This document shows positions 5,134 through 58,602 of a stretch of DNA of 64,000 bases, in pieces. This DNA comes from Hormiphora californensis. Taxonomy: Eukaryota; Animalia; Ctenophora. The first letter of the stretch is position 1. Every line of letters starts with the position of its first letter. Under the pieces are notes generated by a model. It was given only the letters and a program-made list of their open reading frames with translations, was not told the DNA's origin and made no database searches. The stretch is taken from contig CM035360.1 of NCBI GenBank assembly GCA_020137815.1, positions 6,014,001 through 6,078,000 of the forward strand, in the 5' to 3' direction. The translations under genes were made by a program, and so were the position numbers.

Positions 5134-8100
5134 GTACGAAAGATGATGATGAGGAGGATACGACAGAAGACAAGTTGAAAGAATGTGTAGAATTGAATGC
5201 TGAGGCTGACATGCCCATAGAGGAGATTCTCGAGAAATACCAAAAAGGTTTTTTTAAATCTTGGTTCGGGAGAATATTGATATTTTGTTGGAATAGTTCT
5301 ATAGAGTCGGGGATTCGTTTACTGAGTAGAACAATAAAACATGCTTGTTGTTCCAAATAATATCATCTTTCTGAAGATCTTCCCCTGTCATCATCCTTTT
5401 CTCCCTATCTACTATCTGCCATCACATCATCATTCTCTCCCGACTATCTCAGAGAAAACTGATGCTGAGCAGGAGGAAGAAGAGAAGAAGGAGCCAGTAT
5501 TTGAGGGCAAGGGAAAGGGGAAGAAGAAAGGAAAGGAGGGAGAGGAAGGAGAAGAGGAGGCAGCTGCTAACGGAGCATCTTCTGAAAATGGGGTAGGTTG
5601 TTGTCAAGTCATATTGGCAGCCATGAGCCCTAAATACACGAGTAAAGAACGAGGCTAAGTCCATGTTAATGGTCGTTGGGGGAATGATGACTGCTGTAAC
5701 TGAAAACTTTTACCATCTTTTATGTAGTTGGACCATGTTTCTAACCCCTATCACTAATTCCCACAGGATAGTGCCCCAGGAGCATCAGCTGTCAATAAAA
5801 ACAAGGCAGCAGGAATACTTGGTCTGCTAAACGGTGGTCTTGGTGGTGATATTAGGGAGATGTTAGCCAAGGGGTTAGCTGCCAAGTTAGCCGAGGCAGG
5901 AGATGATGATAGTGATGAAGATGCTGATGAAGATTACGAGGAGGGAAGTGGGGAGGAGGAGGAGGAGGAGAGTGAGGAAGAGAGCGAGTCGGTAAGGAGC
6001 AGAATATATGCCTTAATTTGGTCTACTATCACTGGCACCCTCCAAAATTACCAATATATAATCCAAATAATATAATCTCTACTATCTCCGTGTTATAGGG
6101 AGAAGACGAAGATGAGGAAGAAGAGGAGGAAGAAGTTGATGTGGATGAGAGGGAAGGTTATGGTAGTGGTTGTACTGCCTGTGTTGCACTAATCAGGGAT
6201 TCTGTTATTACTGTCGCTAACGTTGGTATGTTCCACACTATTATACAGGTGCTCTCTTGAAACTAGTCCAATTTCGACCTGTTAGTTGAGAAATGAGGGC
6301 GGAGGGGGAGGTTTTGTTATCTCATCATTGATGTGGGTGTTGTGTGTGTATGAAGTGAGTGGGTGATGTCTACAGCAGTTCAGTGCATAATTAATACTAT
6401 TATCCTTGAAACGTGAGCACTGCTGATAATAAGAGCCCTGTCTATACGCCTAATCTGTTCAGATAGCAATAAAACACAAGGATTGTTGCTATCCGAGATT
6501 CCTGATATAAAGATACGCCAATTCGAATAGTACTGTGGGTATGTGCCTAGATTAATCGAACCCAGTGGATTCCCTTGGTAACTCCCATGTTAAACAAGGA
6601 GATGAAACTGGGGGGTTGGAGTTACCTCATATATCGGTACGGCAAATAATATCTTTGTATCAGAATTCTCAGAATGAACAGTTGGGCTATAGCAGTTGAT
6701 CACGTCATATTATTTGTCATCATTGATAACTGGCGATGTTTTGGTCATTGTTATGCGAGGTGATATCTCTAATCTTTGTCTCCTCCAGGTGATTCCAGGG
6801 CAGTAATTTGCACTGCAGGGGGCGTAGCTAAGGAGCTATCTCAAGATCACAAACCTGAAGATGAACTAGAGAAGGCCCGAGTAGAAAAGGCCGGAGGTGG
6901 GTGTTTCTAAACCTAGATATAGTCCTTCTTTAGCCGCACATTGCACAACCATCAGCAGTTTACCGAACTCATCCTTCATACTAACCATAATAATAATAAT
7001 AATTCCATAACAAACCAGCATCATTCCCCTCCCAGGTAAGATAACAAAGGACGGTAGGATTAACGGAGGGTTGAACCTGGCCAGGGCACTTGGAGATCAC
7101 CAGTACAAACAGAATGAGGAACTGAAACCAGAGGAGCAGCTCATTAGCCCCCTACCGGACCTGCAGACTCACACAATAGCACCGTGAGTAGTTATATTTG
7201 CCTTTTTCAATTGGTGAACTGCCCGAGGGACTCGACCCTTTCTTGTGAAAATACCACTATCACCATTACAGTTACCTACCTCCAAACTACACTGGATACA
7301 CTCACTCACACCTATATCACACCCCAGGAAGCGACCGAATATTCGGTTCGGTTCGGTTCGGTTCGGAAATTCGGTGTTTTTTGGGCGGTTCGGTTCGGTT
7401 CGGTTCGGTAGGAAATTTTGGCCGAACCACCGAATTTTTTGGTCAAAAAATTGCCCAGAAATCGGGCTTTTTCATGCAAAATTTTTCAATTATTTCACGA
7501 AAATTGTATGGATTTCAATGTCAATTTCGCCGTATTAACCCTATTTCGAATCGGTTAGGTGGTGCTATGTGGAAATGATTTCGCTAGTTAGCAGGTTCGA
7601 TATGGATTGATTTGATACCTGACTTCCCATCGAATCGTGTCCTCATGAGAGGGTCAACAAATTCAGAAACTTTTTTTTTCAAAAGATTCATGGAGAGCAC
7701 CGATCAAGGTGTTAAGAATCATTCTCTGAAATTTTGTGAAAAAGTTTGGAAAATATTTCAAAGTCAATTTTATGGAAAATTTTCTATGTCAATTTTTGCG
7801 TACGAATCGTGTTTCGAATCGGTATATTGCTAAGCGGGAGTGATCTTGCTAATTAGTGGGTCCGAGATGGATTATGCTGATACGTGATCCCCCATCAAAT
7901 CTAATCAGGAAGTTTAGGGGAAACGATTCATGTTTCAATAAATCCTGCTAATTAGCGAGAGCACTGCCGCATAGCATCACCGATTCGCAACACGATTCGT
8001 ACGGCAAAATTGACATAGCATTTTTTTTCCAAAATTGACTTTGAAATATTTTACAAAGTTTTTTCACAAAATTAAATGTTTCTCTAAAAATTCATGGAGA

Positions 8101-9225
8101 GCATCGATCAAGGTATTGAGAATCATTACCTGAAATTTTGTGAAATTTTTTTTGTGAAAAATATTTTAAGTAAATTATGGTATACGAATCGTGTTTCTAA
8201 TCGACAATGCTAAACGGGAGTGATGTTGGTAATTAGTGGGTCCGAGATGGATTGTGCTGATACGTGATCCCCCATCAAATCTAATTAGGAAATTTAGAGA
8301 GACACGATTCATGGTTCGTTTAATCCTGCTAATTAGCAATACCATTCCCGTATAGCATTGCCGATTCGAAACACGATTCGTACGCAAAAATTGACATAGA
8401 AAATTTACGATAAAATTGACTTTGAAATTTTTTTCACAAAATTGACTTTGAAATTTTTTTCAAACGTTTTTTAACAAAATTTCAGAGAATGATTCTCAAT
8501 ACCTTGATCGGTGCTCTCCATGACTTTTTAGAGAAACATTTATACAGAAAAAGTTTTGTATGGTTCGGTTCGGTTCGGTTACCGAAATTCGGTTCGGTTC
8601 GGTTCGGTTCGGTAAAAAAGTTTTTCAAATTCGGTTCGGTTCGGTTCGGTGGTAAAAAACCCGGTTCGGTCGTTTCCTGTCACACCCCCACCCAAACCTC
8701 TCTCTGCATACATATATACCCCATTCACCTCCCTCCACACATGCCAGGGATGATGAGTTCCTCCTGGTGGCGTGTGACGGGATCTGGAACGTCATGACGT
8801 CAGAGGAGAGTGTCACATTTGTCAGGGAGAGGATAGAAGCTGCTAAGAAGGAGGGAACGTGCAGCAAGACATGGATCTCTGATATCGGTAGTGAGGTAAG
8901 AGTGTTAAATGTTGTCCGTGATTTAAACACAGTAACAGCCTTGTAAGACACTGGTAAACTTCTTTCAGATACATTTTGATTCAAATAAGAAATTTATAAC
9001 CTCACGCGGTCACAGTCCGATTTTGGCATGATATTTCTAACCATCCCTTCCCTCAAGCTGCTGGACAAGTGCATGTCACCCAACACAGATGGAGATGGTA
9101 GTGGTTGTGACAATATGTCCGTCGTCATCATCCTGCTCAACAATGATACCATCAGCACTGGCAAGCGCCCCAATGGCGACACAGAGAAAGAAGAACCAAA
9201 CCCTAAAAAGAGCAAAAGGGACTGA
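4124..9225 (+). CDS. PPM1G: Protein phosphatase 1G (PP2C gamma), about 10 exons
   Basis: MGA..YL start, [22 protein letters not shown], long acidic insert, [58 protein letters not shown], basic C-terminal tail. Confidence 0.93.
4257..4503. mobile_element. MITE with TA target duplication (Tc1/mariner-type) in PPM1G intron 1
   Basis: TIR CCTTACTCTCGTT ... AACGAGAGTAAGG flanked by TA on both sides; inverted subterminal AAGAAACTTTT motifs. Confidence 0.75.
7325..8679. mobile_element. Non-autonomous hAT-like element, 1355 bp, in a PPM1G intron
   Basis: 15-bp TIR CAGGAAGCGACCGAA / TTCGGTCGTTTCCTG (1 mismatch); perfect 8-bp TSD TCACACCC (7317-7324, 8680-8687); (GGTTC)n arrays at both ends; internal direct and inverted repeats; no transposase ORF. 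Confidence 0.88.
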
Positions 9226-9245
9226 TCTTAACTTTCTCCCCAACG

Positions 9246-10894
9246 AGTAAACACACACACACGCATTGAGCAAGCTCAATGTTTAGCTATTCTCCGGCTG
9301 GGTATAGGGCTGAGGTACTGGCAAGATATAGTAGGATCGCTACTGCCCACATGTCAAGTTTATTCGGATATACAAGTTTAAAAGGTTGGGGGGTCACAGG
9401 GACCGTCTTAGCTTCGCTCCCCGTTAACATTGCCTGTAACCGGGGGTCCACTAAGCTCTCATATATACTCGGCCATTACTCCCAACCACTAGTAGTGGTT
9501 TTCAGTACCTCTTATACTGGTAAATCCGTATAGAAACAATCCTTGTGTTTTAATAGCGATCACTCCGTATATCTTGCACTGACCCAGTATTACCACACAT
9601 TAATTGTGCAATTGGCACTATGGGATTTCTCCACTGCGGCCGGCACTGTGAGTAATCAGCCACTATATAAGCTACATCTTGGTTGCTAACCAGTCAATAC
9701 ATTAGTAGAGGGGTTGTAGCACCGGGAGGTAATGAGTAAACACACACACACGCATTGAGCAAGCTCAATGTTTAGCTATTCTCCGGCTGGGTATAGGGCT
9801 GAGGTACTGGCAAGATATAGTAGGATCGCTACTGCCCACATGTCAAGTTTATTCGGATATACAAGTTTAAAAGGTTGGGGGGTCACAGGGACCGTCTTAG
9901 CTTCGCTCCCCGTTAACATTGCCTGTAACCGGGGGTCCACTAAGCTCTCATATATACTCGGCCATTACTCCCAACCACTAGTAGTGGTTTTCAGTACCTC
10001 TTATACTGGTAAATCCGTATAGAAACAATCCTTGTGTTTTAATAGCGATCACTCCGTATATCTTGCACTGACCCAGTATTACCACACATTAATTGTGCAA
10101 TTGGCACTATGGGATTTCTCCACTGCGGCCGGCACTGTGAGTAATCAGCCACTATATAAGCTACATCTTGGTTGCTAACCAGTCAATACATTAGTAGAGG
10201 GGTTGTAGCACCGGGAGGTAATGAGTAAACACACACACACGCATTGAGCAAGCTCAATGTTTAGCTATTCTCCGGCTGGGTATAGGGCTGAGGTACTGGC
10301 AAGATATAGTAGGATCGCTACTGCCCACATGTCAAGTTTATTCGGATATACAAGTTTAAAAGGTTGGGGGGTCACAGGGACCGTCTTAGCTTCGCTCCCC
10401 GTTAACATTGCCTGTAACCGGGGGTCCACTAAGCTCTCATATATACTCGGCCATTACACAGTGCCGGCCGCAGTGGAGAAATCCCATAGTGCCAATTGCA
10501 CAATTAATGTGTGGTAATACTGGGTCAGTGCAAGATATACGGAGTGATCGCTATTAAAACACAAGGATTGTTTCTATACGGATTTACCAGTATAAGAGGT
10601 ACTGAAAACCACTACTAGTGGTTGGGAGTAATGGCCGAGTATATATGAGAGCTTAGTGGACCCCCGGTTACAGGCAATGTTAACGGGGAGCGAAGCTAAG
10701 ACGGTCCCTGTGACCCCCCAACCTTTTAAACTTGTATATCCGAATAAACTTGACATGTGGGCAGTAGCGATCCTACTATATCTTGCCAGTACCTCAGCCC
10801 TATACCCAGCCGGAGAATAGCTAAACATTGAGCTTGCTCAATGCGTGTGTGTGTGTTTACTCATTACCTCCCGGTGCTACAACCCCTCTACTAA
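9246..10894. mobile_element. TSD-flanked concatemer of a self-complementary 489-bp unit (about 2.5 direct copies plus 0.9 inverted copy); candidate retrotransposed circular RNA
   Basis: Period of exactly 489 (9279/9768/10257); inversion from 10458; 13-bp TSD TTTCTCCCCAACG at 9233-9245 and 10895-10907; no TIR, LTR or poly(A). Confidence 0.85.
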
Positions 10895-10985
10895 TTTCTC
10901 CCCAACGCCATTCCTTTTTATCAATCAGCGAAAATTGTCACTCACTGATGTCACTCTCTTACCCGATCAACAGGTGTTCTAGTAT

Positions 10986-11188
10986 CCACGCTAGTTACCT
11001 AGTAACCACGCTAGTTACCTAGTAACCACTCTAGTTACCTAGTAACCACTCGAGTTACCTAGTAACCACTCTAGTTACCTAGAAACCACGCTAGTTACCT
11101 AGTAACCACTCTAGTTACCTAGTAACCACTCTAGTTACCTAGTAACCACTAGTTACCTAGTAACCACACTAGTTACCTAGTAACCACG
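10986..11188. repeat. 20-bp quasi-palindromic minisatellite (CTAGTTACCTAGTAACCACT), about 10 copies
   Basis: Directly visible tandem array; each unit has GTTAC-CTA-GTAAC dyad symmetry. Confidence 0.9.
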
Positions 11189-11438
11189 CATCTCACCCAT
11201 GTGTTGCTCTGCTTTTATTTGATATATTTAACATAATCTTGTTAAAGTGTTGACATCTATTTTAAAACACAGATTTGTTTGTATCTTTACTGTTTTCTAA
11301 AGTGGTCAGAACACCACCCACCCCCCCCCCCCTCTCTCTCTCTCTCTTTCACTCCCTGATCCCTCTCGCTTTGAAATGTCACTATCAGAACCTCAAAACC
11401 ATATCTCTATTATATTTGTAGGATCCCCAACAACTAGA

Positions 11439-14321
11439 ATGGTTATCGTGGATAAAGACATTGCAGAGATCGTGGTTTCAGCAGTTGAAAGAAAACCAGA
11501 GTACATTAGACTCTTCCAGAGAAGCAGTGAGTGATTTTTATAATTTCAATATTACACTCAAACACTCTCTCCCTCCAGTCCTAATTTCTCTCTCCCTCCA
11601 GGCTCCAGACCCGATCACTTTCCCTCCAGCCCCCATCTCTCTCAGCAAGTTTTTATTTCCGACCTGGCAATACCCATCCTACCCATACCCGACCACACAA
11701 TACCCATCTCGGTTAGAAAATAAGGTTGATACTCCTTTCAGAAGTTTCAGAACGGGAGCTCTTTTACTTGAATCGGAACTTAGGAGGTCCGACCTATTTG
11801 AGAAATATCAGGAGTGAAATTTTTAAAGCGATCAGAAAGGAGATGGTGGATTGGTATCACACAAAACCCCGCCCAATATCACCTGGGTTAAGAGTGTGCG
11901 CTTTGATAGATGAGGCGGTGCATGGAGCATGTGAGTATGACAATTATATCCTGTGATATCTAGCTACGAAAGTCCAACTTTACCAACCTCAACCCCACTC
12001 GTTACATAAGTTATTCCAACAGGGGCTGTTGTGAGTGATGTTATGACAACCGTAGCTAACTCTGCCTCATGCATGGCTAAGAAAGAGAAGCAGGAGGTGA
12101 GTTCCGACCCTTACCATAATCTGGTTAGATCTATTATTCTGGCAAGACTACTAACCAGTAGTAACCATGTGTTTTTCTTTTTTTAACCAGATGGGTACAA
12201 TAGACCTCACTCTGGCATCAAGGCTAAAGAGACCACTTCAAGATATACTTGTGGACGTGGGAAGACCTATGAACTGCAGATTTACCAATGGAACAATCGT
12301 ATGGTACGTTGTCCAGTTCAAGTATCTCTGAGCTTTTACTATCCATTCATTTCTCAAATTCCTAATTCTTTACCGTTTACCCTGCCCCTTTTATTTCGAC
12401 AATTAATCCTGTCATATATTAGGCGACCGTTACCTGTTACCGAATAGATGAAGGAGGAGATATAAGAATTATCCCGGCCACCCCGGTTGCCAAGGTAATC
12501 AGGGAGATGAAGCTCCCTGAGATACTTAACGCCACAAGCAAGGTGAGATGTCTACTACCTTAAGTTTTAACCTAGTGTATTCTCAAGTTCAGTTTACATT
12601 TGAGAATTAGGTGTGTGCACGACGCCCCAAGTCCAATATATGATTCCTTCTGTAGGTTGAGTTACTGGAACACAAAGATTGGGCGATGGGTGGGGAAGTG
12701 GCAAGAGAGGTGGTCATGGCTGAAGGACGTGACGGTGGGACATGATTGCCCTGATGCACCACCAACAACCACCCCAAGTCTGGAGGATTCTCAACGCCAA
12801 AACACACACTACCCCAAAGACAAAACACATCCGACATCAGGAAGGGTGTATTCGTTACCAAGAGAGGATGATAGTGTTTTAGTCAATGAAGAGGAGGAGG
12901 AGGGAGGAGATGAAAGTGTTTTAGTCAAACCCGGGGCGCGGAAAGAGAGGGTCGAACAAGGAAAGGACGATAAAGAGAATATCAGTTTGAAGAGGCCAGC
13001 TCCCCCATTAGATACCACGTCCATTAACAAAAAAGGTTTGGTTTTCATCTTACAACTACCTTCAATCATCAAGTGCCAATTGAATTGTTGCAAATGTAGC
13101 AGGATATAATGTACATCTTTACAATTGTTCCCTCCTATAGGCAAGGAGCGGAAGACATTCTCCCACCAACTTCCACCGGTATCTCCCATTGGTTTCGAAG
13201 TCACCCATTTACGTTGCTCGCGCAGAGGGGTAATTTCATTACCAATATCTCCCACGGTCAAGAGAGAATCAATATCCACCCCAAAACACCCTCCCCCTCG
13301 ACCATCTACCCGGAGTGAGAGGTACTCCGAGAGGAACTAGGAGGGTGTGAACTTCTTCTTGAAGAAGGGAGGCGGTGGGAGGAAGTCCTCTTGGTAAGTG
13401 TTATTCATTATTTTATTTACCTTGAACGCACCGAACTTTTTCGGTATTGGGTGTGAACGGAGGAGTCTGCCAACTCTGTACTAATTTAGTACTGCTAATG
13501 TCATGTAAAGGCTATTGTGTGGAACCCGCACACTTTTTGACGCACAACAGCTATTGTTTCTCCTCTATAAAGAAACTCTGTCTTGAGTCTTTGATGTTGA
13601 AACCCTCACCTGTCAGCAATTACCCAACTATATTTTGACAACTGATATATCATATTTTTGTTCAGCGTTATTGATCTTTCTCTGTTTTTCTCAATCTCTT
13701 TCTATCTCTCTCTCTATCTCTATCTCTCTCTCTTTATCTCTCTCTATCTCTCACTCTCTCCCCTCTTCTCCATCCCGCTCCTACTCACACTTCTCGGGGA
13801 AATTTGCTGCTATAGCAACCCCCCTAGCAGCAGCTCGAACTGCACACACACACATAAATATATATCACTCAGTAAATACGAAATCGAATATGTTTAGTCT
13901 GGTCGCGGCCCCCGGCCTTTATCAGTTCTCTGTTCTCTCGTGTGTGTAGTTGACTCTTTGTTTTACCCCGTACGTTGACCAAGCTTCTCCTTTTGGCTCT
14001 TGTGTCTGCAGATCCCTTCTCCGTCGCGAACTTAAGTTTCTCTCTCTCCCCCTTTCTCTCGTGTTTGCAGGCTGGAGGTTGGGTAAAATTGGGGCTCGAA
14101 TGTCCCTCGATAACTTATTTTGCCACAAATGCATGCTGTTATTGAGCATTCAGAGAGCTTACAGCGATAGAGACTCTTCTCTACTCCCTTCTCTCAGAGA
14201 GAGAAGAGTATAGAAGAGAATCTGCAGTTAGAAAGAAATATATATCTGCAGTTAGCCTATTTACTGATATGTAGAGGGTTGCAAGGTGTCTTCCGTGTGT
14301 TATTCCGTACACTACTATACA

Positions 14322-14410
<89 letters not shown>

Positions 14411-16409
14411 CTATCTCTATACCCATGATATCTCTCTTGACTAACGCGTAACGTGTTCTTCAGTTTTATACAGACCCGTAGTAGCCCATACCCAGCCCAT
14501 ACTAGGAATCAGATTGAACAATCACGCTATTGATACCCTTTTTAGGTTACCAGTCTTAGCCTCAGTTGGGGTCCTCCATCAGTAATTATTTTCAATATTA
14601 GGACTTACCTGTTTATAGTGTCTCTTTTCTATTATCACCAGTTGTGAGTTGTAACATGCCCCCCCCCCCCTCCTCAGCTCAACAAATACCTGATGGCACA
14701 GCAGCAGTAGTGTAAGACATGTTGTACACACAGACCCAGTGTTACTAGGTGGTCATGTATGAGCACAGGAGATCCTTTCCAAAACAAATCAGTATGATCC
14801 AGGTAAAATATTATACAACCCCCTGGCCCCCTTGGCTTGCTTGTGTATGATATCCCCCTTCTTCTATCCTCCTGCGCTGTCTCTCTCATGTTATCGCGCG
14901 TGCTACGTTTAGTTAGGGATGGGGGCGAGTGAGTCACTCCCTCTCTCCTTCCCCCTTCCCAAAAAGAGAGGGGACACTGTAGTCTCTACCCAACTGGCCC
15001 CCTAACTTAAACTATAATCAAGATCCTAATTCTTGGATCTTGGATCTGGAATTGTGTTCTGAAAAAAGAACCATATTGACGCTCAATACTAATCCAACTT
15101 CCTTCTACAGATATCCCAGCCCCTCCAAGACAACCGGCCCAAGACAACCCATATCACCAGCAGTCTCACCCGAAACTTCCCTCTCTATAAGTCAGCTGCT
15201 GGTTTCTATAGCAACTATGCGACTCTCCAAACACAGGCCACCATATCGAGAAGCACACCCAACTTTTCTAAAGATCAACAGGTTCGTTTATACAATACTT
15301 GTTTAGTGTATCTGTTTTTATCTGATACTGATCTATCTTCCTAATGGTACCCTTTATTCTAAACTCAACTCGGTCCTTTTTCAACCTTTTTATCTAATTA
15401 CCTCACCCTTGACCCTAACAGCTAACTATCTCTCGCACAGTGCCCCCTAATTACCCAACACTCCTCACTACTCTATTCCCAGGTTTCATTCCCCATGTGG
15501 TCCCGTCCCTTCCGACCCAAACAGATGAACTCAGCTGGAGGAAGGAATGGGAGGGTGTTAAAACACCGTGTACCTGCAGCCACACCAACAGCTCCTAATC
15601 ACCGCCTAACTGGCAGCCACTTGTAAGTTGACTAGCAAACCCTTCGATACGGTAGACGCAACCCCGACGCTTTCCTCTTACGAATTACGATAGAGATGGG
15701 TTAATTAATTAACTGATTTAAATTAGTTGTATTTGAAGATGGTCTAACTCTTTTCACACTTCAGAAAGTTAGGTCAAGAGGTAGCTACAGCAGTAGGACT
15801 AGAGAAAAAGAGAAGGGATCAAGACCTACCTCCTATTGCAACATCTCCTGCCAGCCCGGGTCAGGAGTACCCTTCTCCAATACGGGTCACTGTCAAAATT
15901 AATCATCGTGAAACGAAGAGGTAACTTACTAGACTGTCATGGCACATGTGTATTTGTGTGTACTGTGTCATAAACAAGTTGGAAACACTTTATAAGCACT
16001 TTGTAGACGTACAATTTCCAACTCAATCCAAATTTCCAGGCTTCCTGAGACAGACGATAGTTCGAAATCAGGGGAAGGTGGACCGGTTGGTGAATCTGAT
16101 TTTACATTACAACGTTATATTGACTTTCTCAGACGATCTGGGAATGCTGATCTAACTCACAACGCCTACCTGAAGGTTAGTTAGTACTTTACGCATGGTT
16201 TAGTACGGATGGTTTATCTGGTGGTGAATTTTAGGTCTAGGTCTACACTTCACTTCCCCTACAAGTTATAACTCACACCCTTGCCCCCCCCCCCCATATT
16301 TAACTCGCTATCCCCCCTGTGATAGGTTGAGAACTGGCTGTCTGAAATGCATAAAGATGGGACCTGGCCGGTGCAATGGTTCTCAACTAAACGGGTACAT
16401 CACTATTAA
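11439..16409 (+). CDS. Uncharacterised multi-exon protein gene (no family recognised)
   Basis: Chain of AG/GT-bounded open exons (about 11422-11527, 11741-11930, 12023-12096, 12191-12303, 12423-12542, 12656-13035, 13141-13393, 15111-15281, 15483-15622, 15765-15920, 16040-16176, 16326-16409); phase checked only for the last three. Confidence 0.55.
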
Positions 16410-16473
16410 AGTTGTTGAGTGTCATGGGGGACTCAAGAAATAGAAGAGGAATGAGGATATCACTGTTATAGAT

Positions 16474-16586
16474 ATTATGCCAAAAACTAACAGAAATTAG
16501 TTGGCTGGAAAGGTGACCACTTTTATTGTCAAACTTACACCTTTGCCCTCTCCGGGTTTTTTCATCATTATATTTCCCTCTCACTT

Positions 16587-16683
<97 letters not shown>

Positions 16684-16799
16684 CCTTTCTCTCTCCCTTT
16701 CCCTCTATTTCCGTAACCCGGGCCGGGCAAAGGTGTAAGTTTGACAATAAAAGTGGTCACCTTTCCAGCCAACTAATTTCTGTTAGTTTTTGGCATAAT
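16474..16799. repeat. About 75-bp inverted repeat enclosing a (CT)n microsatellite
   Basis: 16474-16548 is the reverse complement of 16725-16799. Confidence 0.9.
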
Positions 16800-17415
16800 T
16801 TAGGTCTATTTTTGGTATTTTCTGATGTGAAATACGATGTAAGACATGTCTGGACGTAGCAGAACTTGTAAAGACCGTCAGAAATCGCTAAAAATTTAAA
16901 TTTTGACGTCATTTTGACGTCATAGTGTGACGTCACGACGTTATAACGTCTTGCTAATGAAAAATTATTATCAGGCTCATCTAGATAAAGATGCTGACCA
17001 AGTTTGAGATCGATTGGACAAGATTTGAGGTCGCTATGGCGAAAAACGCACTATCGTCATATCTATTTTATACAGTCTTAAAACTTCAGACGCGATTTAA
17101 GACCCTTGGAAATAGAGTTTCAAAAATTCGCGATATAGTTTCTGAAAGTTTAGACGATTATCTTTCATAAGTGTGGTCTCCATTTTTCAATCAGAAGCCG
17201 TCTTCAGGGTGTAAATTGAGCTCAAAGAAATTTGGTCGATTTGAAAAATATCTTAACTTTATGACAGTTTTTAAGGACGTTCTGGTAAGACATAGAACAT
17301 GAAAACCCTCCAATAACACAATCCAAACGATTATCTTTCGAATGCAACAAACGAGAAGTGTCTATCTCTTGTAGTTTTTCCAGAAAATTGTCTGCAAATT
17401 GTGTAAAAAAGCGTC

Positions 17416-17447
<32 letters not shown>

Positions 17448-17722
17448 CATGTATATATAGACACGGACATTTATTGCTTTTTTCACCATGTCATAACTCT
17501 AAAACTAAAAGAGATAGAGACTTGCCCTTTTAAACTCCAGTAGATCTAGTCTACGTGACACTGTATACCAAATTTCAGACCGATTGGTGCAGTGGGGGCC
17601 TCGCTATGGGCGTCGCAAAATGCCATTTTTGGCTAAAAACTGAAAAAACTTATTACTGCTTTCTGGCACGCGCGGCTGGGGGGAGGTGGTGGTCACCTTT
17701 GCGCTCGCCAGCGCAGTGATAA
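16713..17722 (+). mobile_element. Helentron/DINE-like non-autonomous element
   Basis: 5' AAAGGTG...GTGGTCACCTTT sub-terminal hairpin; internal (GTAT)n; repeated core (CCAARTTT.AGA.CGATTGG...TCGCTATGG); 3' GTGGTCACCTTT followed by hairpin GCGCTCGCCAGCGC. Confidence 0.55.
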
Positions 17723-17989
17723 TGGACAACATGAGATTTGACTCCCCTCCGGGAGCAACGAGGGTTCAGACAGATATAATATTTTCTTGGTGATAAACTA
17801 TTTTAGACTGGGTTCGCTTGCATTAACGAAAGATTCAGTGTTCGCCAAACACTTTATGAAAAACTTGGGACACATTTATTAATTGAATTAGGATAAAAGA
17901 ATCTATTTTTATTATCCTTTTAAAAAGTTTTACCATTCTTAAGTCGATTGTTTATCATTTATTATCATCAAAAGGTTTTGCAAAAAATC

Positions 17990-18071
17990 CGCTGCGAGCA
18001 GGGTTCGAACCTGCGCGGGCATTGCCCATTAGATTTCAAGTCTAACGCCTTAACCACTCGGCCATCGCAGC
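17990..18071 (-). tRNA. tRNA-Ser (anticodon UGA)
   Basis: GCTGCGA acceptor stem, A box TGGCCGAGTGG, anticodon arm TTAGA-CTTGAAA-TCTAA, long variable arm, B box GGTTCGAACCC, T6 terminator just downstream. Confidence 0.96.
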
Positions 18072-18496
18072 AGTATGATTTCCGCAATTGTCGGGTATTT
18101 AAACTCATCGTCACAGCCTCATTCGAAAGTTGCACTGCTTCCAATGAGGTCATGATGGGAGAGAGTGCCTCCCGGTTCAACCTGTCACGTGACTGACCGC
18201 GCGCATTTCGCCAGTAAGGATGATACTGCGCGTTTCCATTCTGTACGTTTTCACTGCCAAAATGTCGAAATGCGTGCAGCGGCGTGTTTTAAATTATATG
18301 CGCTGCAAACTTCCCGCGCGGCGTTGAATATATTTTCAAGTTTGAATCAAAAATTTTCGTTTTTCCTGACCCTTTTTAAAAATTTTTCTGCCTCAAATTT
18401 GAAAATTCTGTGAACAGCCTGTGCTACGTCTGCCGTCGCCCGTCATATTGGCCACCCGCATGAAGCGTTGTCTACGACGTCAAAGAAGCAGTTCAC

Positions 18497-18734
18497 TAAA
18501 GTCGGATTTTTTGAAACTGTCACCCCCCTGGGTGGTGCACGAGTTTTTATTTCTGCGTCGGAAACTTGTTTCTTGACCAATTTCGTCAAACCAAAGTTTT
18601 ACGGACTCACAAAATTATGCTCTTTCCGATAATATGCGTTTTTTGCCGAAGAGTGAGAGCAAGTGGGGCTGTCACGCGCAAATACGACGCCGCGTGTGAA
18701 AAGGGGGGCGACAGTTTCAAAAAATCCGACTTTA
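18497..18734. mobile_element. MITE, about 238 bp
   Basis: 32-bp inverted termini TAAAGTCGGATTTTTTGAAACTGTC(A/G)CCCCCC with 1 mismatch. Confidence 0.75.
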
Positions 18735-19414
18735 ACGTTGTTTGCTTTTTCGGACGTTTTGACTCTTGGATTTCGTGGGCGGCGCTGTTGGGGTGGCAAA
18801 CGCCAACCATGACGGAACACCACTGACTACTGTTAACTGTAACATAACATCAGTCCACATTAGCCATTACTAGTTAATTCACACAAATATAACTCGGTCA
18901 CCCCTAAAGTATATAATGCCCCTAAATTTCACACTTCCTTCACCGTTTTGAGAAGTTTTTCCTGTTAGCGAAGGTTTGCAGAGCTTGTTGATATCAGATA
19001 AGTATATGTATTCGCAGTAATATGATCTGAGATCTCACACAAGACATACACTGATCGTGGGGGCTTACACCTCACTAACAATAACAATGTGAACTGCAGT
19101 TGCCAGTTGTTTTAGCTAGCTGCAATCAATGTCCTACATGAATTATACTCTGTTTGATTTCATTCTCATTATCATCTACCATCTTTTGTTGTTGAAGCAC
19201 AGCTCCCAACAATTATACAAGGGGTGAATGGTGGATCACCATTGGTGATGTGGTTGTGAGGGAACGTAGTATAGCACCCCCTATGGTCATTGACCAATGA
19301 CCAGCTATACTAAACTAATCTCAACTCCTTTTATTAGCTAGCGATGTAAGGTTTTCAGGTCAAACTAAATACTAATAGCCACCTGAAGAGAAGTCCCATA
19401 ATTGTGAGGGAGTA

Positions 19415-29052
<9,638 letters not shown>

Positions 29053-34200: not shown

Positions 34201-37200
34201 TTGTCATATAGGATACTATTGTCTATTTCCTACTCCAATTATACCATAGTACCTATCTTAAGTATTACTTTCCTAGTTCCTACTAAACTAGCTACGAGAC
34301 AGTATATACGCTACCAGACACACTGCCTATACTAGACTTGCTACTAGACACACTGCCTATACTAGACTTGCTACCAGACACACTGCCTATACTAGACTTG
34401 CTACTAGACACACTGCCTATACTAGACTTGCTACTAGACACCGCTTCCTATACTAGACTTGCTACCAGACACACTGCCTATACTAGACTTGCTACTAGAC
34501 ACACTGCCTATACTAGACTTGCTACTAGACACACTGCCTATACTAGACTTGCTACTAGACACACTGCCTATACTAGACTTGCTACTAGACACACTGCCTA
34601 TACTAGACTTGCTACCAGACACACTGCCTATACTAGACTTGCTACTAGACACACTGCCTATACTAGACTTGCTACCAGACACACTGCCTATACTAGACTT
34701 GCTACTAGACACACTGCCTATACTAGACTTGCTACTAGACACACTGCCTATACTAGACTTGCTACTAGACACACTGCCTATACTAGACTTGCTACTAGAC
34801 ACACTGCCTATACTAGACTTGCTACTAGACACACTGCCTATACTAGACTTGCTACTAGACACACTGCCTATACTAGACTTGCTACTAGACACACTGCCTA
34901 TACTAGACTTGCTACTAGACACACTGCCTATACTAGACTTGCTACTAGACACACTGCCTATACTAGACTTGCTACCAGACACACTGCCTATACTAGACTT
35001 GCTACCAGACACACTGCCTATACTAGACTTGCTACTAGACACACTGCCTATACTAGACTTGCTACTAGACACACTGCCTATACTAGACTTGCTACCAGAC
35101 ACACTGCCTATACTAGACTTGCTACTAGACACACTGCCTATACTAGACTTGCTACTAGACACACTGCCTATACTAGACTTGCTACTAGACACACTGCCTA
35201 TACTAGACTTGCTACTAGACACACTGCCTATACTAGACTTGCTACTAGACACACTGCCTATACTAGACTTGCTACTAGACACACTGCCTATACTAGACTT
35301 GCTACTAGACACACTGCCTATACTAGACTTGCTACTAGACACACTGCCTATACTAGACTTGCTACCAGACACACTGCCTATACTAGACTTGCTACTAGAC
35401 ACACTGCCTATACTAGACTTGCTACTAGACACACTGCCTATACTAGACTTGCTACTAGACACACTGCCTATACTAGACTTGCTACTAGACACACTGCCTA
35501 TACTAGACTTGCTACTAGACACACTGCCTATACTAGACTTGCTACTAGACACACTGCCTATACTAGACTTGCTACCAGACACACTGCCTATACTAGACTT
35601 GCTACTAGACACACTGCCTATACTAGACTTGCTACTAGACACACTGCCTATACTAGACTTGCTACTAGACACACTGCCTATACTAGACTTGCTACTAGAC
35701 ACACTGCCTATACTAGACTTGCTACCAGACACACTGCCTATACTAGACTTGCTACTAGACACACTGCCTATACTAGACTTGCTACTAGACACACTGCCTA
35801 TACTAGACTTGCTACTAGACACACTGCCTATACTAGACTTGCTACTAGACACACTGCCTATACTAGACTTGCTACTAGACACACTGCCTATACTAGACTT
35901 GCTACCAGACACACTGCCTATACTAGACTTGCTACTAGACACACTGCCTATACTAGACTTGCTACTAGACACACTGCCTATACTAGACTTGCTACTAGAC
36001 ACACTGCCTATACTAGACTTGCTACTAGACACACTGCCTATACTAGACTTGCTACTAGACACACTGCCTATACTAGACTTGCTACTAGACACACTGCCTA
36101 TACTAGACTTGCTACTAGACACACTGCCTATACTAGACTTGCTACTAGACACACTGCCTATACTAGACTTGCTACTAGACACACTGCCTATACTAGACTT
36201 GCTACTAGACACACTGCCTATACTAGACTTGCTACTAGACACACTGCCTATACTAGACTTGCTACTAGACACACTGCCTATACTAGACTTGCTACTAGAC
36301 ACACTGCCTATACTAGACTTGCTACTAGACACACTGCCTATACTAGACTTGCTACTAGACACACTGCCTATACTAGACTTGCTACTAGACACACTGCCTA
36401 TACTAGACTTGCTACTAGACACACTGCCTATACTAGACTTGCTACTAGACACACTGCCTATACTAGACTTGCTACCAGACACACTGCCTATACTAGACTT
36501 GCTACTAGACACACTGCCTATACTAGACTTGCTACCAGACACACTGCCTATACTAGACTTGCTACTAGACACACTGCCTATACTAGACTTGCTACCAGAC
36601 ACACTGCCTATACTAGACTTGCTACTAGACACACTGCCTATACTAGACTTGCTACCTAGACACACTGCCTATACTAGACTTGCTACTAGACACACTGCCT
36701 ATACTAGACTTGCTACTAGACACACTGCCTATACTAGACTTGCTACTAGACACACTGCCTATACTAGACTTGCTACTAGACACACTGCCTATACTAGACT
36801 TGCTACTAGACACACTGCCTATACTAGACTTGCTACTAGACACACTGCCTATACTAGACTTGCTACTAGACACACTGCCTATACTAGACTTGCTACTAGA
36901 CACACTGCCTATACTAGACTTGCTACTAGACACACTGCCTATACTAGACTTGCTACTAGACACACTGCCTATACTAGACTTGCTACTAGACACACTGCCT
37001 ATACTAGACTTGCTACTAGACACACTGCCTATACTAGACTTGCTACTAGACACACTGCCTATACTAGACTTGCTACCAGACACACTGCCTATACTAGACT
37101 TGCTACTAGACACACTGCCTATACTAGACTTGCTACTAGACACACTGCCTATACTAGACTTGCTACTAGACACACTGCCTATACTAGACTTGCTACTAGA

Positions 37201-40200
37201 CACACTGCCTATACTAGACTTGCTACCAGACACACTGCCTATACTAGACTTGCTACTAGACACACTGCCTATACTAGACTTGCTACTAGACACACTGCCT
37301 ATACTAGACTTGCTACTAGACACACTGCCTATACTAGACTTGCTACTAGACACACTGCCTATACTAGACTTGCTACTAGACACACTGCCTATACTAGACT
37401 TGCTACCAGACACACTGCCTATACTAGACTTGCTACTAGACACACTGCCTATACTAGACTTGCTACTAGACACACTGCCTATACTAGACTTGCTACTAGA
37501 CACACTGCCTATACTAGACTTGCTACTAGACACACTGCCTATACTAGACTTGCTACTAGACACACTGCCTATACTAGACTTGCTACTAGACACACTGCCT
37601 ATACTAGACTTGCTACTAGACACACTGCCTATACTAGACTTGCTACTAGACACACTGCCTATACTAGACTTGCTACTAGACACACTGCCTATACTAGACT
37701 TGCTACTAGACACACTGCCTATACTAGACTTGCTACTAGACACACTGCCTATACTAGACTTGCTACTAGACACACTGCCTATACTAGACTTGCTACTAGA
37801 CACACTGCCTATACTAGACTTGCTACTAGACACACTGCCTATACTAGACTTGCTACTAGACACACTGCCTATACTAGACTTGCTACTAGACACACTGCCT
37901 ATACTAGACTTGCTACCAGACACACTGCCTATACTAGACTTGCTACTAGACACACTGCCTATACTAGACTTGCTACCAGACACACTGCCTATACTAGACT
38001 TGCTACTAGACACACTGCCTATACTAGACTTGCTACCAGACACACTGCCTATACTAGACTTGCTACCAGACACACTGCCTATACTAGACTTGCTACCAGA
38101 CACACTGCCTATACTAGACTTGCTACTAGACACACTGCCTATACTAGACTTGCTACTAGACACACTGCCTATACTAGACTTGCTACTAGACACACTGCCT
38201 ATACTAGACTTGCTACCAGACACACTGCCTATACTAGACTTGCTACTAGACACACTGCCTATACTAGACTTGCTACCAGACACACTGCCTATACTAGACT
38301 TGCTACTAGACACACTGCCTATACTAGACTTGCTACTAGACACACTGCCTATACTAGACTTGCTACTAGACACACTGCCTATACTAGACTTGCTACTAGA
38401 CACACTGCCTATACTAGACTTGCTACCAGACACACTGCCTATACTAGACTTGCTACTAGACACACTGCCTATACTAGACTTGCTACTAGACACACTGCCT
38501 ATACTAGACTTGCTACTAGACACACTGCCTATACTAGACTTGCTACTAGACACACTGCCTATACTAGACTTGCTACCAGACACACTGCCTATACTAGACT
38601 TGCTACTAGACACACTGCCTATACTAGACTTGCTACTAGACACACTGCCTATACTAGACTTGCTACTAGACACACTGCCTATACTAGACTTGCTACTAGA
38701 CACACTGCCTATACTAGACTTGCTACTAGACACACTGCCTATACTAGACTTGCTACCAGACACACTGCCTATACTAGACTTGCTACTAGACACACTGCCT
38801 ATACTAGACTTGCTACTAGACACACTGCCTATACTAGACTTGCTACTAGACACACTGCCTATACTAGACTTGCTACTAGACACACTGCCTATACTAGACT
38901 TGCTACTAGACACACTGCCTATACTAGACTTGCTACTAGACACACTGCCTATACTAGACTTGCTACTAGACACACTGCCTATACTAGACTTGCTACTAGA
39001 CACACTGCCTATACTAGACTTGCTACTAGACACACTGCCTATACTAGACTTGCTACTAGACACACTGCCTATACTAGACTTGCTACTAGACACACTGCCT
39101 ATACTAGACTTGCTACTAGACACACTGCCTATACTAGACTTGCTACTAGACACACTGCCTATACTAGACTTGCTACTAGACACACTGCCTATACTAGACT
39201 TGCTACTAGACACACTGCCTATACTAGACTTGCTACCAGACACACTGCCTATACTAGACTTGCTACTAGACACACTGCCTATACTAGACTTGCTACTAGA
39301 CACACTGCCTATACTAGACTTGCTACTAGACACACTGCCTATACTAGACTTGCTACTAGACACACTGCCTATACTAGACTTGCTACTAGACACACTGCCT
39401 ATACTAGACTTGCTACCAGACACACTGCCTATACTAGACTTGTTACTAGACACACTGCCTATACTAGACTTGCTACTAGACACACTGCCTATACTAGACT
39501 TGCTACTAGACACACTGCCTATACTAGACTTGCTACTAGACACACTGCCTATACTAGACTTGCTACTAGACACACTGCCTATACTAGACTTGCTACCAGA
39601 CACACTGCCTATACTAGACTTGCTACCAGACACACTGCCTATACTAGACTTGCTACTAGACACACTGCCTATACTAGACTTGCTACTAGACACCGCTTCC
39701 TATACTAGACTTGCTACCAGACACACTGCCTATACTAGACTTGCTACTAGACACACTGCCTATACTAGACTTGCTACTAGACACACTGCCTATACTAGAC
39801 TTGCTACTAGACACACTGCCTATACTAGACTTGCTACCAGACACACTGCCTATACTAGACTTGCTACTAGACACACTGCCTATACTAGACTTGCTACTAG
39901 ACACACTGCCTATACTAGACTTGCTACCAGACACACTGCCTATACTAGACTTGCTACTAGACACACTGCCTATACTAGACTTGCTACTAGACACACTGCC
40001 TATACTAGACTTGCTACCAGACACACTGCCTATACTAGACTTGCTACTAGACACACTGCCTATACTAGACTTGCTACCAGACACACTGCCTATACTAGAC
40101 TTGCTACTAGACACACTGCCTATACTAGACTTGCTACTAGACACACTGCCTATACTAGACTTGCTACTAGACACACTGCCTATACTAGACTTGCTACTAG

Positions 40201-43200
40201 ACACACTGCCTATACTAGACTTGCTACTAGACACACTGCCTATACTAGACTTGCTACTAGACACACTGCCTATACTAGACTTGCTACTAGACACACTGCC
40301 TATACTAGACTTGCTACTAGACACACTGCCTATACTAGACTTGCTACTAGACACACTGCCTATACTAGACTTGCTACTAGACACAGCTTCCTATACTAGA
40401 CTTGCTACTAGACACACTGCCTATACTAGACTTGCTACTAGACACCGCTTCCTATACTAGACTTGCTACTAGACACACTGCCTATACTAGACTTGCTACT
40501 AGACACACTGCCTATACTAGACTTGCTACCAGACACACTGCCTATACTAGACTTGCTACTAGACACACTGCCTATACTAGACTTGCTACTAGACACACTG
40601 CCTATACTAGACTTGCTACTAGACACACTGCCTATACTAGACTTGCTACTAGACACACTGCCTATACTAGACTTGCTACTAGACACACTGCCTATACTAG
40701 ACTTGCTACTAGACACACTGCCTATACTAGACTTGCTACTAGACACACTGCCTATACTAGACTTGCTACTAGACACACTGCCTATACTAGACTTGCTACT
40801 AGACACACTGCCTATACTAGACTTGCTACTAGACACACTGCCTATACTAGACTTGCTACTAGACACACTGCCTATACTAGACTTGCTACTAGACACACTG
40901 CCTATACTAGACTTGCTACTAGACACCGCTTCCTGGAGGACCCCACGTTAATGGTGTATTCTGACCGATACAGAACGAAGAAGCACACTTGTACCAAGAA
41001 GATATCACACTACCAACTAGATATAAAATACCTGTTTACTGTCGGGTCGTGATTGTATACGACTGTGTAGTTCTGTCTCAACCAGGCGGAGTGTCGACAG
41101 TTCCACTGTACCAGTATCACTGAAAGTTGTTTTGTCTAAATGCAGAGATACAATGAGATATCACAGAGAGATAGGGAGATAGAGAGAAACATAGATAAGA
41201 GAGATACAGAGATACAGAGAGATACTGATATCACTAATGCGTGCTCAATATATGTCGCATGTTAACAGACATACCACATGTAAATTAAATAGTTTCCATT
41301 GTGGCTTGTGTGGAAACAGCTATATTTCTATATATAGAATATATATAGGTATGTATACCTGGTAAGGCACCGTAGTGAGTTGCAGTAGAGGAGAGATAGA
41401 CAGCACAGTTTCAAGGAAGCCAGTAGACTGTCCAGTACCATCTTACAGTGTGGCATGTCCTGAAGGAGTGGTTACTTTCAGTTTTTTGGCACAACTTGTC
41501 CATACCAGTCCATACTGTATGTGATGTGTAGATGCTACAAACTATCTGCTACAACTATCTCATGTTGATTTGGAATACAGTTTTACTACACTTCTCTCCT
41601 ACTAAGCTATGTACAAACTATGTATACATAAGCTATGATAGTAGTATTATTAACAATGGCATCATGGGGTACCCTCTCGCCAACTCAAAGTACGATTTTA
41701 ATTATTATATCGTACTAACTGCTTTTACTCAGGGGAACAGAGGGAATCCCGACAGTCAATTGGGGATGGTAATTTGATACTACTTTTAAACACACCACGG
41801 CGTGCAGATAATGTGTCTCTCTCTAACTTTACCGTAGTAATGCTAATCAGCTCAAGACCTTATTTACCCAGACACTTACAGCGACTAGGCGAAGAAAGGA
41901 GTGAATGAGGGAGATGTTACATCGCTCTTTCAGTTCCTGTTGGAGATAGTCGCAGACTTCCAAAAATCCATGTGCTAGCATAAGATCTTGCTGAAAAAAG
42001 GGGGGGGGGGTTAGAAACACAACAATAACAGCTAAATTATTCAATAGGGCAGTTATTTGTGTCTTTGAAATTATGCTAATGATCGCTTTTTACTAGTTAC
42101 TAGGTAATTAGGGGGGGGGGGGTATAACAAAGAGTAAACGTTCCAAACCCCCAGGGCAACACCCATCCCTAACAGGGCTCTCTCCCCTCCCCTCTCTACT
42201 GTCTCTCCCTCTCTCCCTCTCTTTCCCTCTTCCTTTCAATTTTCCTACCATTTTGGTCAAGTCTGGAGGTAGAATCTGGCTGGCCTGTCCTCGTACATCA
42301 AGCTGCATGATGTCCCCATGTCGACAACAAATGACAACCCAACCCAAATCATTCCAACCCCTTCTCTCCATCTGTATCCCCTTGTTATCCACCCTAATAA
42401 TCGTCTGGCTGGCTACACTGGACTCCGTCGTGTCTGGGCAGGTCTGGATGGCACACTCCGATGTAAACCTAACATTATCATCATCACCATCCTGATCAAC
42501 TGAGAACTCCCCTGGTTCCTGTTTCACAATGATACCATCATCACAGTCCTGTTCTGTCTGGGTCTCTGCACTCTGAGTGGCGGGTCTCTCGTTCACGATC
42601 ATTAGTTGGATAGGGTGCTCTATACCGCTCGTAGCTGGGGTTGCAATTGTTGCAGCATTGGGTTTTGTGATGGTAGGTGTTTTAGGAGTACTGACTGCTG
42701 CTGCTGCGGCGCTGTTGTTAGCTGTATCCTTTGAAACAGTCTTAGAAACTGGAGTTACAGCTGGGCTGGAGTTAGGAGCAGCATCTTTAGAATTTCTCGA
42801 AACTGCGGCTGGAGTGGGAGTAACATCTTTAGAAGAAGTCCTGGAAACTGCGGCTGGAGTGGGAGTAACATCTTTAGAAGAAGTCCTGGAAACTGCGGCT
42901 GATCTAGACTGTTTTTTGGATGGGGGTTGTGGTGTTTTGTTGGTCTGGAGGGGATCCCGTGCGGGGACTTTAGGAGTGTTGGGTGTGTGTGGAGGTGTGT
43001 TGTTGTTTGGAACTGGTTCTGATACTATAGAAACTGAGGAAGAGGAAGCTGTACTGGATCCTGATTCGTTAGATTTGTGTCTGCCTCTATTGGTAGATGG
43101 TACTGTGTCTTCTGAAAAAACATAGTGGTTAGGAGAGAGTTCAATAATAACAATAAGATGGTTTAGGCATTGATTTACAGGGTGTTAAATATTATATACT

Positions 43201-45272: not shown

Positions 45273-46456
45273 GCCCTATAAAAGTTGGTTCATTGCAATA
45301 TTATATTAGACATATACGTTTGTCCTGTGAATTGACCTACTACAAGTTCGATAATAATTTCGAAAAATTTCGATTCACCAAAAATTTTGAATTTCCATGA
45401 GTTTCCATGAATTTCGAAAAATTTCGAAAAATTTCGAGAAAGTGAGTCAGTTACGGTAGAGTATTGGGCTAAACAGGTGAGTCAGGTACAGTGCGCTATG
45501 TGTAGGGAATCGTCAGGAGCAGTATTGGAGCAGCAGGTTCTCAAAGACTCTGCAAATGAGCTTCAGGGCTAGGCTTATATAACCCCGGTCCCACTGGAGT
45601 TGTAATCATTAGTCACCCTGAGGTAGCACACTTAGGGGTCACCTGGCTAAGCCATAATTCCTAACTCTTCCTTTTCCAAAAGGTTCGCTCTTCATCGGGT
45701 AATCCATGACGCATATACCCCAAGTAGCATTCTGAATTACAGTCGGGAGACTTCAAAGCAGGGATTCTTGGTGAAATGATCAAATTATAGGATAAATTCA
45801 TTTCTACAACAGTCGTCACCAAGGGTCATGTTCAATTGTAGAAGGAAAACAGAGCTGAGAGCATTTCATGGTACTTTAGGGTATTTCCTGCATGCAATAC
45901 CCATATTTTCACATTTGCACTTGGGCCCAGTTACAAAATTGGGTCCTGGATACCAGGGTCCGGTCCATCGGTCCAGATGGCCCCTGTCTGACCGAAATGC
46001 TATCAATTGACTAGTAGGTAATCAGCAACTAGCAAGCATACTCTGCAGGCCTCTCAACCCTCAATGCGGGGGTACGTGCTGCGTGCATAGGGAGAACCGT
46101 GTTGGAGTGGCTAGCAAATTTCGAGAGCAAGTTTTGAACTAAAAAAACACAAACCAACATGGCCATGCATGGATTTTTGGTCTTACCGCGCGCGGCGAGT
46201 ATCAAAAATGGAAATGCGGCATTAAAAGTTAAATTGAAGCGCATGCCATTATGACGCGTTACTGGCTTCGCGTCGTAAAATCCAAAAATATGCTCGCTCC
46301 GCAGCTGCTGAAGTTTTCACTTTTTTGTAAAAATTTTTCGCTCAATTTGAAATTTCCATCCCTCTTCACCCAATCATCCTTTTCCGTTACATATCTACAT
46401 TTTACCCTTCTGAAAAGTTCTTTAAGAGTTATCCTTCAAGTCAGGATGCATGAAGG

Positions 46457-52177: not shown

Positions 52178-58602
<6,425 letters not shown>

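Follow-up and report, generated by a model that had tools for sequence, protein, structure and literature searches.

How does a short stretch of non-coding DNA come to lie in head-to-tail and inverted copies, between perfect target-site duplications (TSDs), seven nucleotides after the stop codon of a gene? An insertion in the ctenophore Hormiphora californensis raises this question. It sits in the window analysed here, a stretch of 64,000 nt without any N (assembly GCA_020137815.1, contig CM035360.1, 6,014,001-6,078,000, forward strand; positions below are those of the window). A sequence-only reading of the locus had proposed that reverse transcriptase (RT) copied a circular RNA, and that the template could be a new mobile element or an endogenised viroid-like agent. 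We find that the insertion is real and recent, and that its layout is already known from Penelope-type elements (PLEs). Since that layout has been published, we do not regard the locus as a system of a new kind and would class it as a non-autonomous PLE-type element.

Layout of the insertion

The insertion follows the last coding exon (9058-9225, plus strand) of a PP2C gene, which ends in a TGA at 9223-9225 and has a PF00481 match in its preceding exon. The gene product is 93% identical to a 480-aa PF00481 protein, and from its acidic insert we take the gene to be PPM1G-like. The insertion presumably lies within the 3' UTR. Two plus-strand copies of TTTCTCCCCAACG, at 9233-9245 and 10895-10907, form the 13-bp TSD; the chance of such a match at a given spot is ~1.5e-8. 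Inside them, the left arm (9246-10457, plus strand) repeats with a perfect period of 489 from 9245 or 9246 to 10457, giving 1212 nt or 2.48 units, and has its tail-less outer end at unit position 1. The right arm (10458-10894, minus strand) comprises 437 nt that are 100% identical to the circularised unit in inverted orientation, from unit 457 at its tailed outer end round to unit 404/405. These measurements agree with the description given earlier, of about 2.5 identical copies, an inverted 437-bp copy and a 13-bp TSD that begins 7 nt after the stop.

Read inward from either TSD, both arms are the unit plus strand, as had been claimed, starting at unit 1 (equivalent to 490) and unit 457. The outer ends are 33 nt apart (range 32-34, given one shared base at each TSD); the offset of about 35 nt in the sequence-only reading is real, but the figure was slightly high. 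The offset appears as a one-sided extension, or tail, of 33 nt on the right side only (10862-10894, plus strand). Its template strand is A or C at 22 of 33 positions, and the tailed end falls inside a stem-loop in the fold prediction. By comparison with PMC11167929, the tail would be the interval between two RT start sites. The earlier statement that terminal inverted repeats are lacking holds for the unit, but not for the whole insertion, which has perfect 405-bp terminal inverted arms (9246-9650 and 10457-10861).

At the inversion junction (10451-10460, no strand assigned), unit 234 is where the plus arm stops, and the minus arm begins with unit 405. The reported ATTAC microhomology is present and extends to seven letters common to both strands, ATTACTC, within a stretch similar at 17 of 23 positions. 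Of these 7 nt, ATTAC survives at the junction and the last 2 are missing, so that the exact overlap is only 1 nt. There is no poly(A) in the insertion. The 3' ends of the target share 1 nt with the template at each start, and the target is neither a TA microsatellite nor clearly AT-rich. The inversion junction and the right junction are read from the assembly, public contigs having been compared only with the left flank and the first unit.

A structured, high-copy unit with an older relative

One complete unit occupies 9246-9734, with the minus strand as the putative RNA template. Six-frame translation of the circularised unit gives a longest stop-free frame of 88 aa, and thus no RT or GIY-YIG open reading frame, in keeping with the earlier view that the insertion has no credible frame and no poly(A). 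Rfam returned no match at E up to 10 for 9200-10950. The hammerhead cores CUGANGA and UUGANAA, the latter a variant described for PLE hammerheads, are absent from both strands of the unit. A relaxed hammerhead descriptor, together with HDV-like and twister core descriptors, likewise found nothing in the unit, in scans run without a positive control. A SINE was considered and rejected: the unit has no A box and no B box within 1 mismatch, and the sole tRNA of the window is a tRNA-Ser(TGA) at 17989-18072 on the minus strand. The unit is small, tandem and non-coding, with GC below 50% and a TSD longer than 4 bp. As no ribozyme was found, it nonetheless fails the definition of a retrozyme, and by definition it is neither a retrozyme nor a viroid.

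The predicted circular fold of the unit is modestly stable and not a rod, with -142 kcal/mol (-0.29 kcal/mol per nt), z scores of -2.7 and -2.5 against shuffles and 63-65% of positions paired. Its predicted core (9312-9577, minus strand) is a long interrupted stem that encloses several hairpins, in which 9312-9386 pairs with 9503-9577 (unit 67-141 with 258-332) at 72% complementarity. An 18-nt imperfect palindrome at 9264-9281 (no strand assigned) lies beside an (AC)n run, where coverage of the unit is deepest in two DNA runs, X2 and X6; this segment is apparently common to related subfamilies. A nonamer, CAGTATTAC, occurs at unit 339-347 with no flanking stem.

An older, diverged relative of the unit lies 3 kb upstream in an intron of the same PP2C gene (6333-6716, plus strand, in template sense). 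Its core, 6462-6609, matches the unit with an nhmmer E of 2e-4. Its alignment score is 70; of the 110 window segments, the remaining 109 score no higher than 37.5. The two sequences have an exact 18-nt motif in common, and the relative is predicted to fold into a similar architecture (circular z -3.6 to -4.1), with a long stem at the matching place but of different sequence. One inner hairpin differs between relative and unit by two compensatory C-G to U-A changes, a comparison of two sequences only. Counts of G.U against A.C in the long stems, 2 v 1 and 1 v 2, give no indication of which strand is functional. On this pair of sequences, and without statistics, the family looks old and structured. 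An 11-bp direct repeat at 6322-6332 and 6717-6727 brackets 384 nt around the relative and may be a TSD; a rough count puts the chance of such a repeat in the intron at ~4 in 100. The relative does not end at an obvious tail.

Several further candidates around these sequences were set aside. A second possible relative at 11255-11317 scored 37.5, which equals the second-best of the 110 segments, against a null maximum of 34 from a different region. Six Rfam matches in 6200-6800, all with E of 1 or worse and far below gathering scores, were taken as chance, and the single match of the relaxed ribozyme descriptor in the relative is implausible. On the minus strand, the 11-bp repeat resembles a C box, with weak, chance-level C/D snoRNA matches.

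We looked for the unit in public sequencing runs. Part of it is present in 20 of the 24 runs listed, which come from 12 studies; 10 runs contain at least half of the unit, 6 are RNA runs, and 14 of the 20 are classed as DNA under a label guessed by the tool. Contigs of four runs were compared over 8900-9734. In X2, a sample that may be the source, the summed unit depth is 9,000-21,800 against 34 for the flank contig (260-630 times), and in X6, another sample, it is 23,600-438,000 against 1134 (20-390 times); summed depth here measures abundance, not copy number. The unit is a high-copy repeat family. In both runs, depth over positions 9245-9345 exceeds that of the remaining unit 2- to 10-fold, and three X6 contigs leave the unit directly after the hairpin, at 9280. 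This segment is apparently shared by related subfamilies and is possibly the end of an autonomous partner.

Only two sites of the unit vary at 5% or more in X2 (11.5% and 7.5%), which indicates a young family. The probability that the major allele stands at both sites in all of four independent copies is 0.45, so copy identity does not discriminate between a circle and a tandem transcript and is no proof of a circle. The earlier claim that the insertion is recent is supported, and the X6 sample appears to lack the insertion. There, a single 780-nt contig matches 8900-9245 and continues with 8 letters that do not match the unit. We read this contig as the empty-site allele that had been suggested as a check, and the insertion appears to be polymorphic.

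Head-to-tail joints are present in X2 and in X13, an rRNA-depleted seawater RNA run. X13 supplied one 277-nt contig of depth 4.9 in which 21 foreign letters precede the plus strand of the unit, which begins at 9703 (unit 458) and crosses the unit boundary to reach 9314, 101 nt in all; the contig then inverts, with a 3-nt overlap, to 9517-9363. It looks like a second insertion of like build that ends 1 nt from the tailed end here, for which the prior is 0.006, and it could be chimeric. Circularly permuted breakpoints had been predicted at other loci; the sole readable independent insertion, that in X13, instead ends within 1 nt of the tailed end. Outer-type loose ends in X6 lie elsewhere, at 9401, 9669 and 9681 with one contig each, and are other start sites or diverged subfamilies. 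In X2, the 15 loose-end entries listed, of 144, do not cluster at 9702. A short X14 match to the PP2C exon came from another organism's contig and was discarded. JGI metagenome contigs held no locus with either of two patterns, and viral contigs none for three patterns; for a fourth, one viral-contig locus (L001) had only an 18-19-nt match and was rejected as chance. Phages and plasmids gave no unit match.

A Penelope-type footprint

The layout described above has close counterparts among PLEs. In the published PLE signature, partial tandems are accompanied by a 5'-truncated copy in inverted orientation and, at one end, by a tail of 30-40 bp (bioRxiv 10.1101/2021.04.23.441226; PMC8557442). Pen2a_Av has an inverted pLTR, a 9-bp TSD and a 31-bp tail, and pLTRs are sufficient in trans (PMC3846280); Penelope of D. 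virilis has a 34-37-bp repeat and an inverted form (PMC2377424). Purified PLE protein nicks and extends both strands, with RT starting at two adjacent internal sites in an AC-rich stem-loop without target homology and the tail corresponding to the stretch between them; the hammerhead is dispensable for insertion in vitro and PLEs are thought to use multi-copy linear RNA (PMC11167929). Naiad PLEs, which are without canonical hammerheads, are listed for the ctenophores Beroe and Mnemiopsis, the Beroe entry being flagged 'HHR_core' (PMC8557442).

The insertion resembles Penelope/Poseidon, Neptune and Naiad elements in its tandem copies, its inverted copy that yields terminal inverted repeats, its 30-40-nt tail and a TSD of variable length, and also in having two putative start sites without target homology (PMC8557442, PMC3846280, PMC2377424, PMC11167929). 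Unlike endonuclease-bearing PLEs, it has no RT/GIY-YIG frame, consists wholly of the 489-nt unit and yielded no sequence link to a named PLE in the motifs compared; nor is its target the TA microsatellite that Naiad prefers. Also comparable are the non-autonomous PLEs of the Chlamys group, for instance MRC1 in Chlamydomonas reinhardtii, which insert head-to-tail in multiple copies and are likewise non-coding, young and polymorphic, in a clade described as mostly without hammerheads (PMC8557442). MRC1-type elements, however, belong to a green alga and have 3'-end sequence in common with known autonomous families, whereas no such partner was found for the ctenophore unit in the frames and motifs searched.

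Metazoan non-LTR retrozymes provide the other comparison. They too are small, tandem, non-coding units of below 50% GC with long TSDs and a self-paired predicted fold, and their circles are made with the hammerhead (PMC7229834). A preprint argues that retrozymes derive from PLE pLTRs (bioRxiv 10.64898/2026.07.22.740005). It has been proposed from co-occurrence and pLTR kinship that PLEs mobilise them; across these two sources, their size range of 51-972 bp includes 489 nt, and insertions in 3' UTRs are mentioned. Retrozymes there have a type I hammerhead in each unit and circular RNA has been shown, whereas the 489-nt unit has no recognisable hammerhead. Since the hammerhead test failed, the element works like a PLE-mobilised retrozyme without being a member of that group; the retrozyme-like label applied earlier stands as kinship but not as membership. 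In the literature searched, which took in few subscription papers, no such element, no retrozyme and no viroid-like circular RNA has been reported from ctenophores.

We consider it likely that a PLE enzyme mobilised the unit, whichever template was used. For the specific reading of a young, non-autonomous, PLE-mobilised element without a hammerhead, copied from a linear multi-unit RNA, our confidence is evenly divided. Under that reading, a tandem array would be transcribed into multi-unit RNA of the unit minus strand. A PLE GIY-YIG endonuclease acting in trans would nick the two target strands 13 bp apart, and each 3'-OH would prime RT with essentially no target homology. Synthesis would begin at either of two fixed internal sites, unit 457 and unit 1, which are separated by 33 nt, yielding cDNAs of 437 and 1212 nt, respectively, that stop at variable points. 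The longer cDNA, the left arm, would come from the top-strand nick and the shorter, the right arm, from the bottom-strand nick; they would be joined back-to-back through the short homology ATTAC, and gap filling would produce the TSD.

Tandem copies, an adjacent inverted and truncated copy, a one-sided tail of 30-40 nt and a TSD occur together, and the prior for outer ends separated by 30-40 nt is 22/489 = 0.045. Both putative start sites lack target homology, with 1 shared base at each end. On the recurrence of the ends, X13 offers unit 458 against 457 here, and X6 three single-contig ends elsewhere. A cDNA of 2.5 units can arise only on a circle, on a multi-unit transcript or through precise template jumps. 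Because the searches revealed no ribozyme that could close a circle, we consider a linear multi-unit transcript (or precise jumps) somewhat likelier. Antisense-template self-priming has been discussed as an alternative route to inverted PLE ends (PMC3846280), so the template strand is one that we infer. The earlier proposal of RT on a 489-nt minus-strand template is supported as to a multi-unit, minus-strand template, but copy identity does not establish the circle. Of the window's 180 open frames with at least 75 aa, 120 were searched for an autonomous partner, with no RT or GIY-YIG match. Six unit motifs were absent from a published PLE consensus supplement, a search that misses line-broken motifs and in which the ctenophore Naiads are from other genera.

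Competing readings and what they would mean

The strongest rival keeps the PLE-type enzyme and its two start sites but has it copy a unit-length circular RNA 2.5 times, with closure by an unrecognised ribozyme or by a protein. We regard this as possible, though on balance doubtful. The exact head-to-tail copies without a seam suit it, as do circular folds that beat shuffles in both unit and relative, the long stem kept in different sequence with two compensatory changes (two sequences only), the circles made by metazoan retrozymes of similar composition and TSD length (PMC7229834), and the presence of part of the unit in 6 of the 8 RNA runs listed. Against it, no hammerhead, HDV-like or twister core was found, the predicted pairing is not that of a rod, and copy identity does not discriminate. 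The one RNA run compared, X13, gave a single low-depth contig that resembles a genomic insertion. Other RNA runs, X16-X20, hold unit shares of 0.15-0.19, and two RNA runs hold 0.00 of the unit words where the DNA of their sample holds 0.52; all of these comparisons are weak, being made on seawater contigs, and contigs from RNA runs carry no information on strand, ends or level. A fuller version, which we entertain more tentatively still, posits an old ctenophore family of ribozyme-less RNA circles, copied round by a hammerhead-less Naiad-like RT from two fixed starts. To the same tentative degree, such circles might be closed by a ribozyme or a protein, with a 250-nt fold and the 18-nt motif kept although the sequences have otherwise diverged too far to align easily.

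L1 insertions with twin-primed 5' inversions combine a TSD with an internal inversion joined at short homology, and retroposition of a satellite transcript by an L1-type LINE could on that model account for the variable-length TSD and the inversion; if the template were a linear multimer, a gap of 85 nt would separate the end of the first arm from the start of the second, which fits twin priming. This is improbable given the lack of a poly(A) or simple-repeat 3' tail, primer homology of 1 nt at both ends, an offset of 33 nt that falls within the PLE tail range, apparently fixed start sites and an apparent second insertion, in X13, with an end within 1 nt of this one. The target-primed, twin-primed mechanism proposed earlier is retained as copying from both nicked strands; the mobiliser, however, appears to be of Penelope type and not L1, the one-sided tail speaking against the latter. 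A rolling-circle DNA concatemer captured at a staggered break, from a non-autonomous Helitron or Helentron or a CRESS-type minicircle, is very improbable. Helentron-type elements carry a hairpin beside a microsatellite, as the unit does, and the CAGTATTAC nonamer, a part of the unit in a viral metagenome run and the three X6 contigs that leave the unit after the hairpin point the same way. The nonamer, however, lacks a flanking stem, no matching sub-terminal inverted repeats or TC...CTRR ends were seen on reading the unit, and viral contigs, phages and plasmids yielded only the one 18-nt chance match. A TSD is present here, and we know of no Helitron insertions with TSDs.

We give little credence to an infectious viroid-like RNA endogenised at the site. 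The unit is small, non-coding and moderately structured and occurs in marine metagenomes and metatranscriptomes of 12 studies. It is, however, abundant in the genomic DNA of two samples of the organism, the runs that hold it are mostly of the DNA class, no ribozyme was found in either polarity, it is not a highly paired rod, and an old diverged relative lies in the same gene; a high-copy genomic family with such a relative nearby tells against the earlier suggestion of an endogenised viroid-like agent. Least probable of all is an assembly artefact of the tandem or inversion. The copies are 100% identical and two of the junctions come from the assembly, but the TSD is exact over 13 bp, the tail is of textbook length, head-to-tail joints recur in X2 and X13, and X13 shows an analogous inversion.

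On the preferred reading of PLE mobilisation, the mechanical footprint of a PLE lies here on a purely non-coding unit without a hammerhead. If this is true, a ribozyme is unnecessary for PLE parasitism, and hammerhead-based searches overlook a whole class of these elements. From the two ends, RT start sites can be predicted with single-base precision, making the two-site in vitro model (PMC11167929) testable across a ctenophore genome. Were the circular-RNA reading true, it would reveal a retroelement class invisible to every ribozyme-based search. Whatever the template, a perfect 405-bp inverted repeat 7 nt after the PP2C stop, apparently polymorphic, provides a natural allele for studying double-stranded 3' UTR effects.

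The surrounding window holds other repeats and genes. Another PP2C intron contains a 1.35-kb non-coding element (7325-8679) with 15-bp terminal inverted repeats (14/15) and an 8-bp TSD, TCACACCC, at 7317-7324 and 8680-8687. It has runs of TTCGG close to either end and numerous inverted repeats inside; from the 8-bp TSD, we presume it to be a non-autonomous hAT-type DNA transposon. A nearly palindromic 20-bp minisatellite of 10.6 copies (10979-11187) starts 70 bp downstream of the insertion. Farther on are a 30-bp satellite of 220 copies with 98% matches, a strong C skew and stop-free frames (34310-40926), and a 34-bp tandem repeat of 21 copies with 98% matches (52916-53629). An RTEL1 exon matches a Pleurobrachia bachei protein in EukProt with 93% identity across 55% of the query, and the next matches listed with at most 55%; by this measure the host is close to Pleurobrachia and probably a cydippid. 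Adjacent hydrophobic open frames of 866 and 934 aa (46454-51818), in different reading frames with an overlap of ~40 nt and no Pfam match, may together form a single gene for a large membrane protein, interrupted by a short intron or a frameshift.
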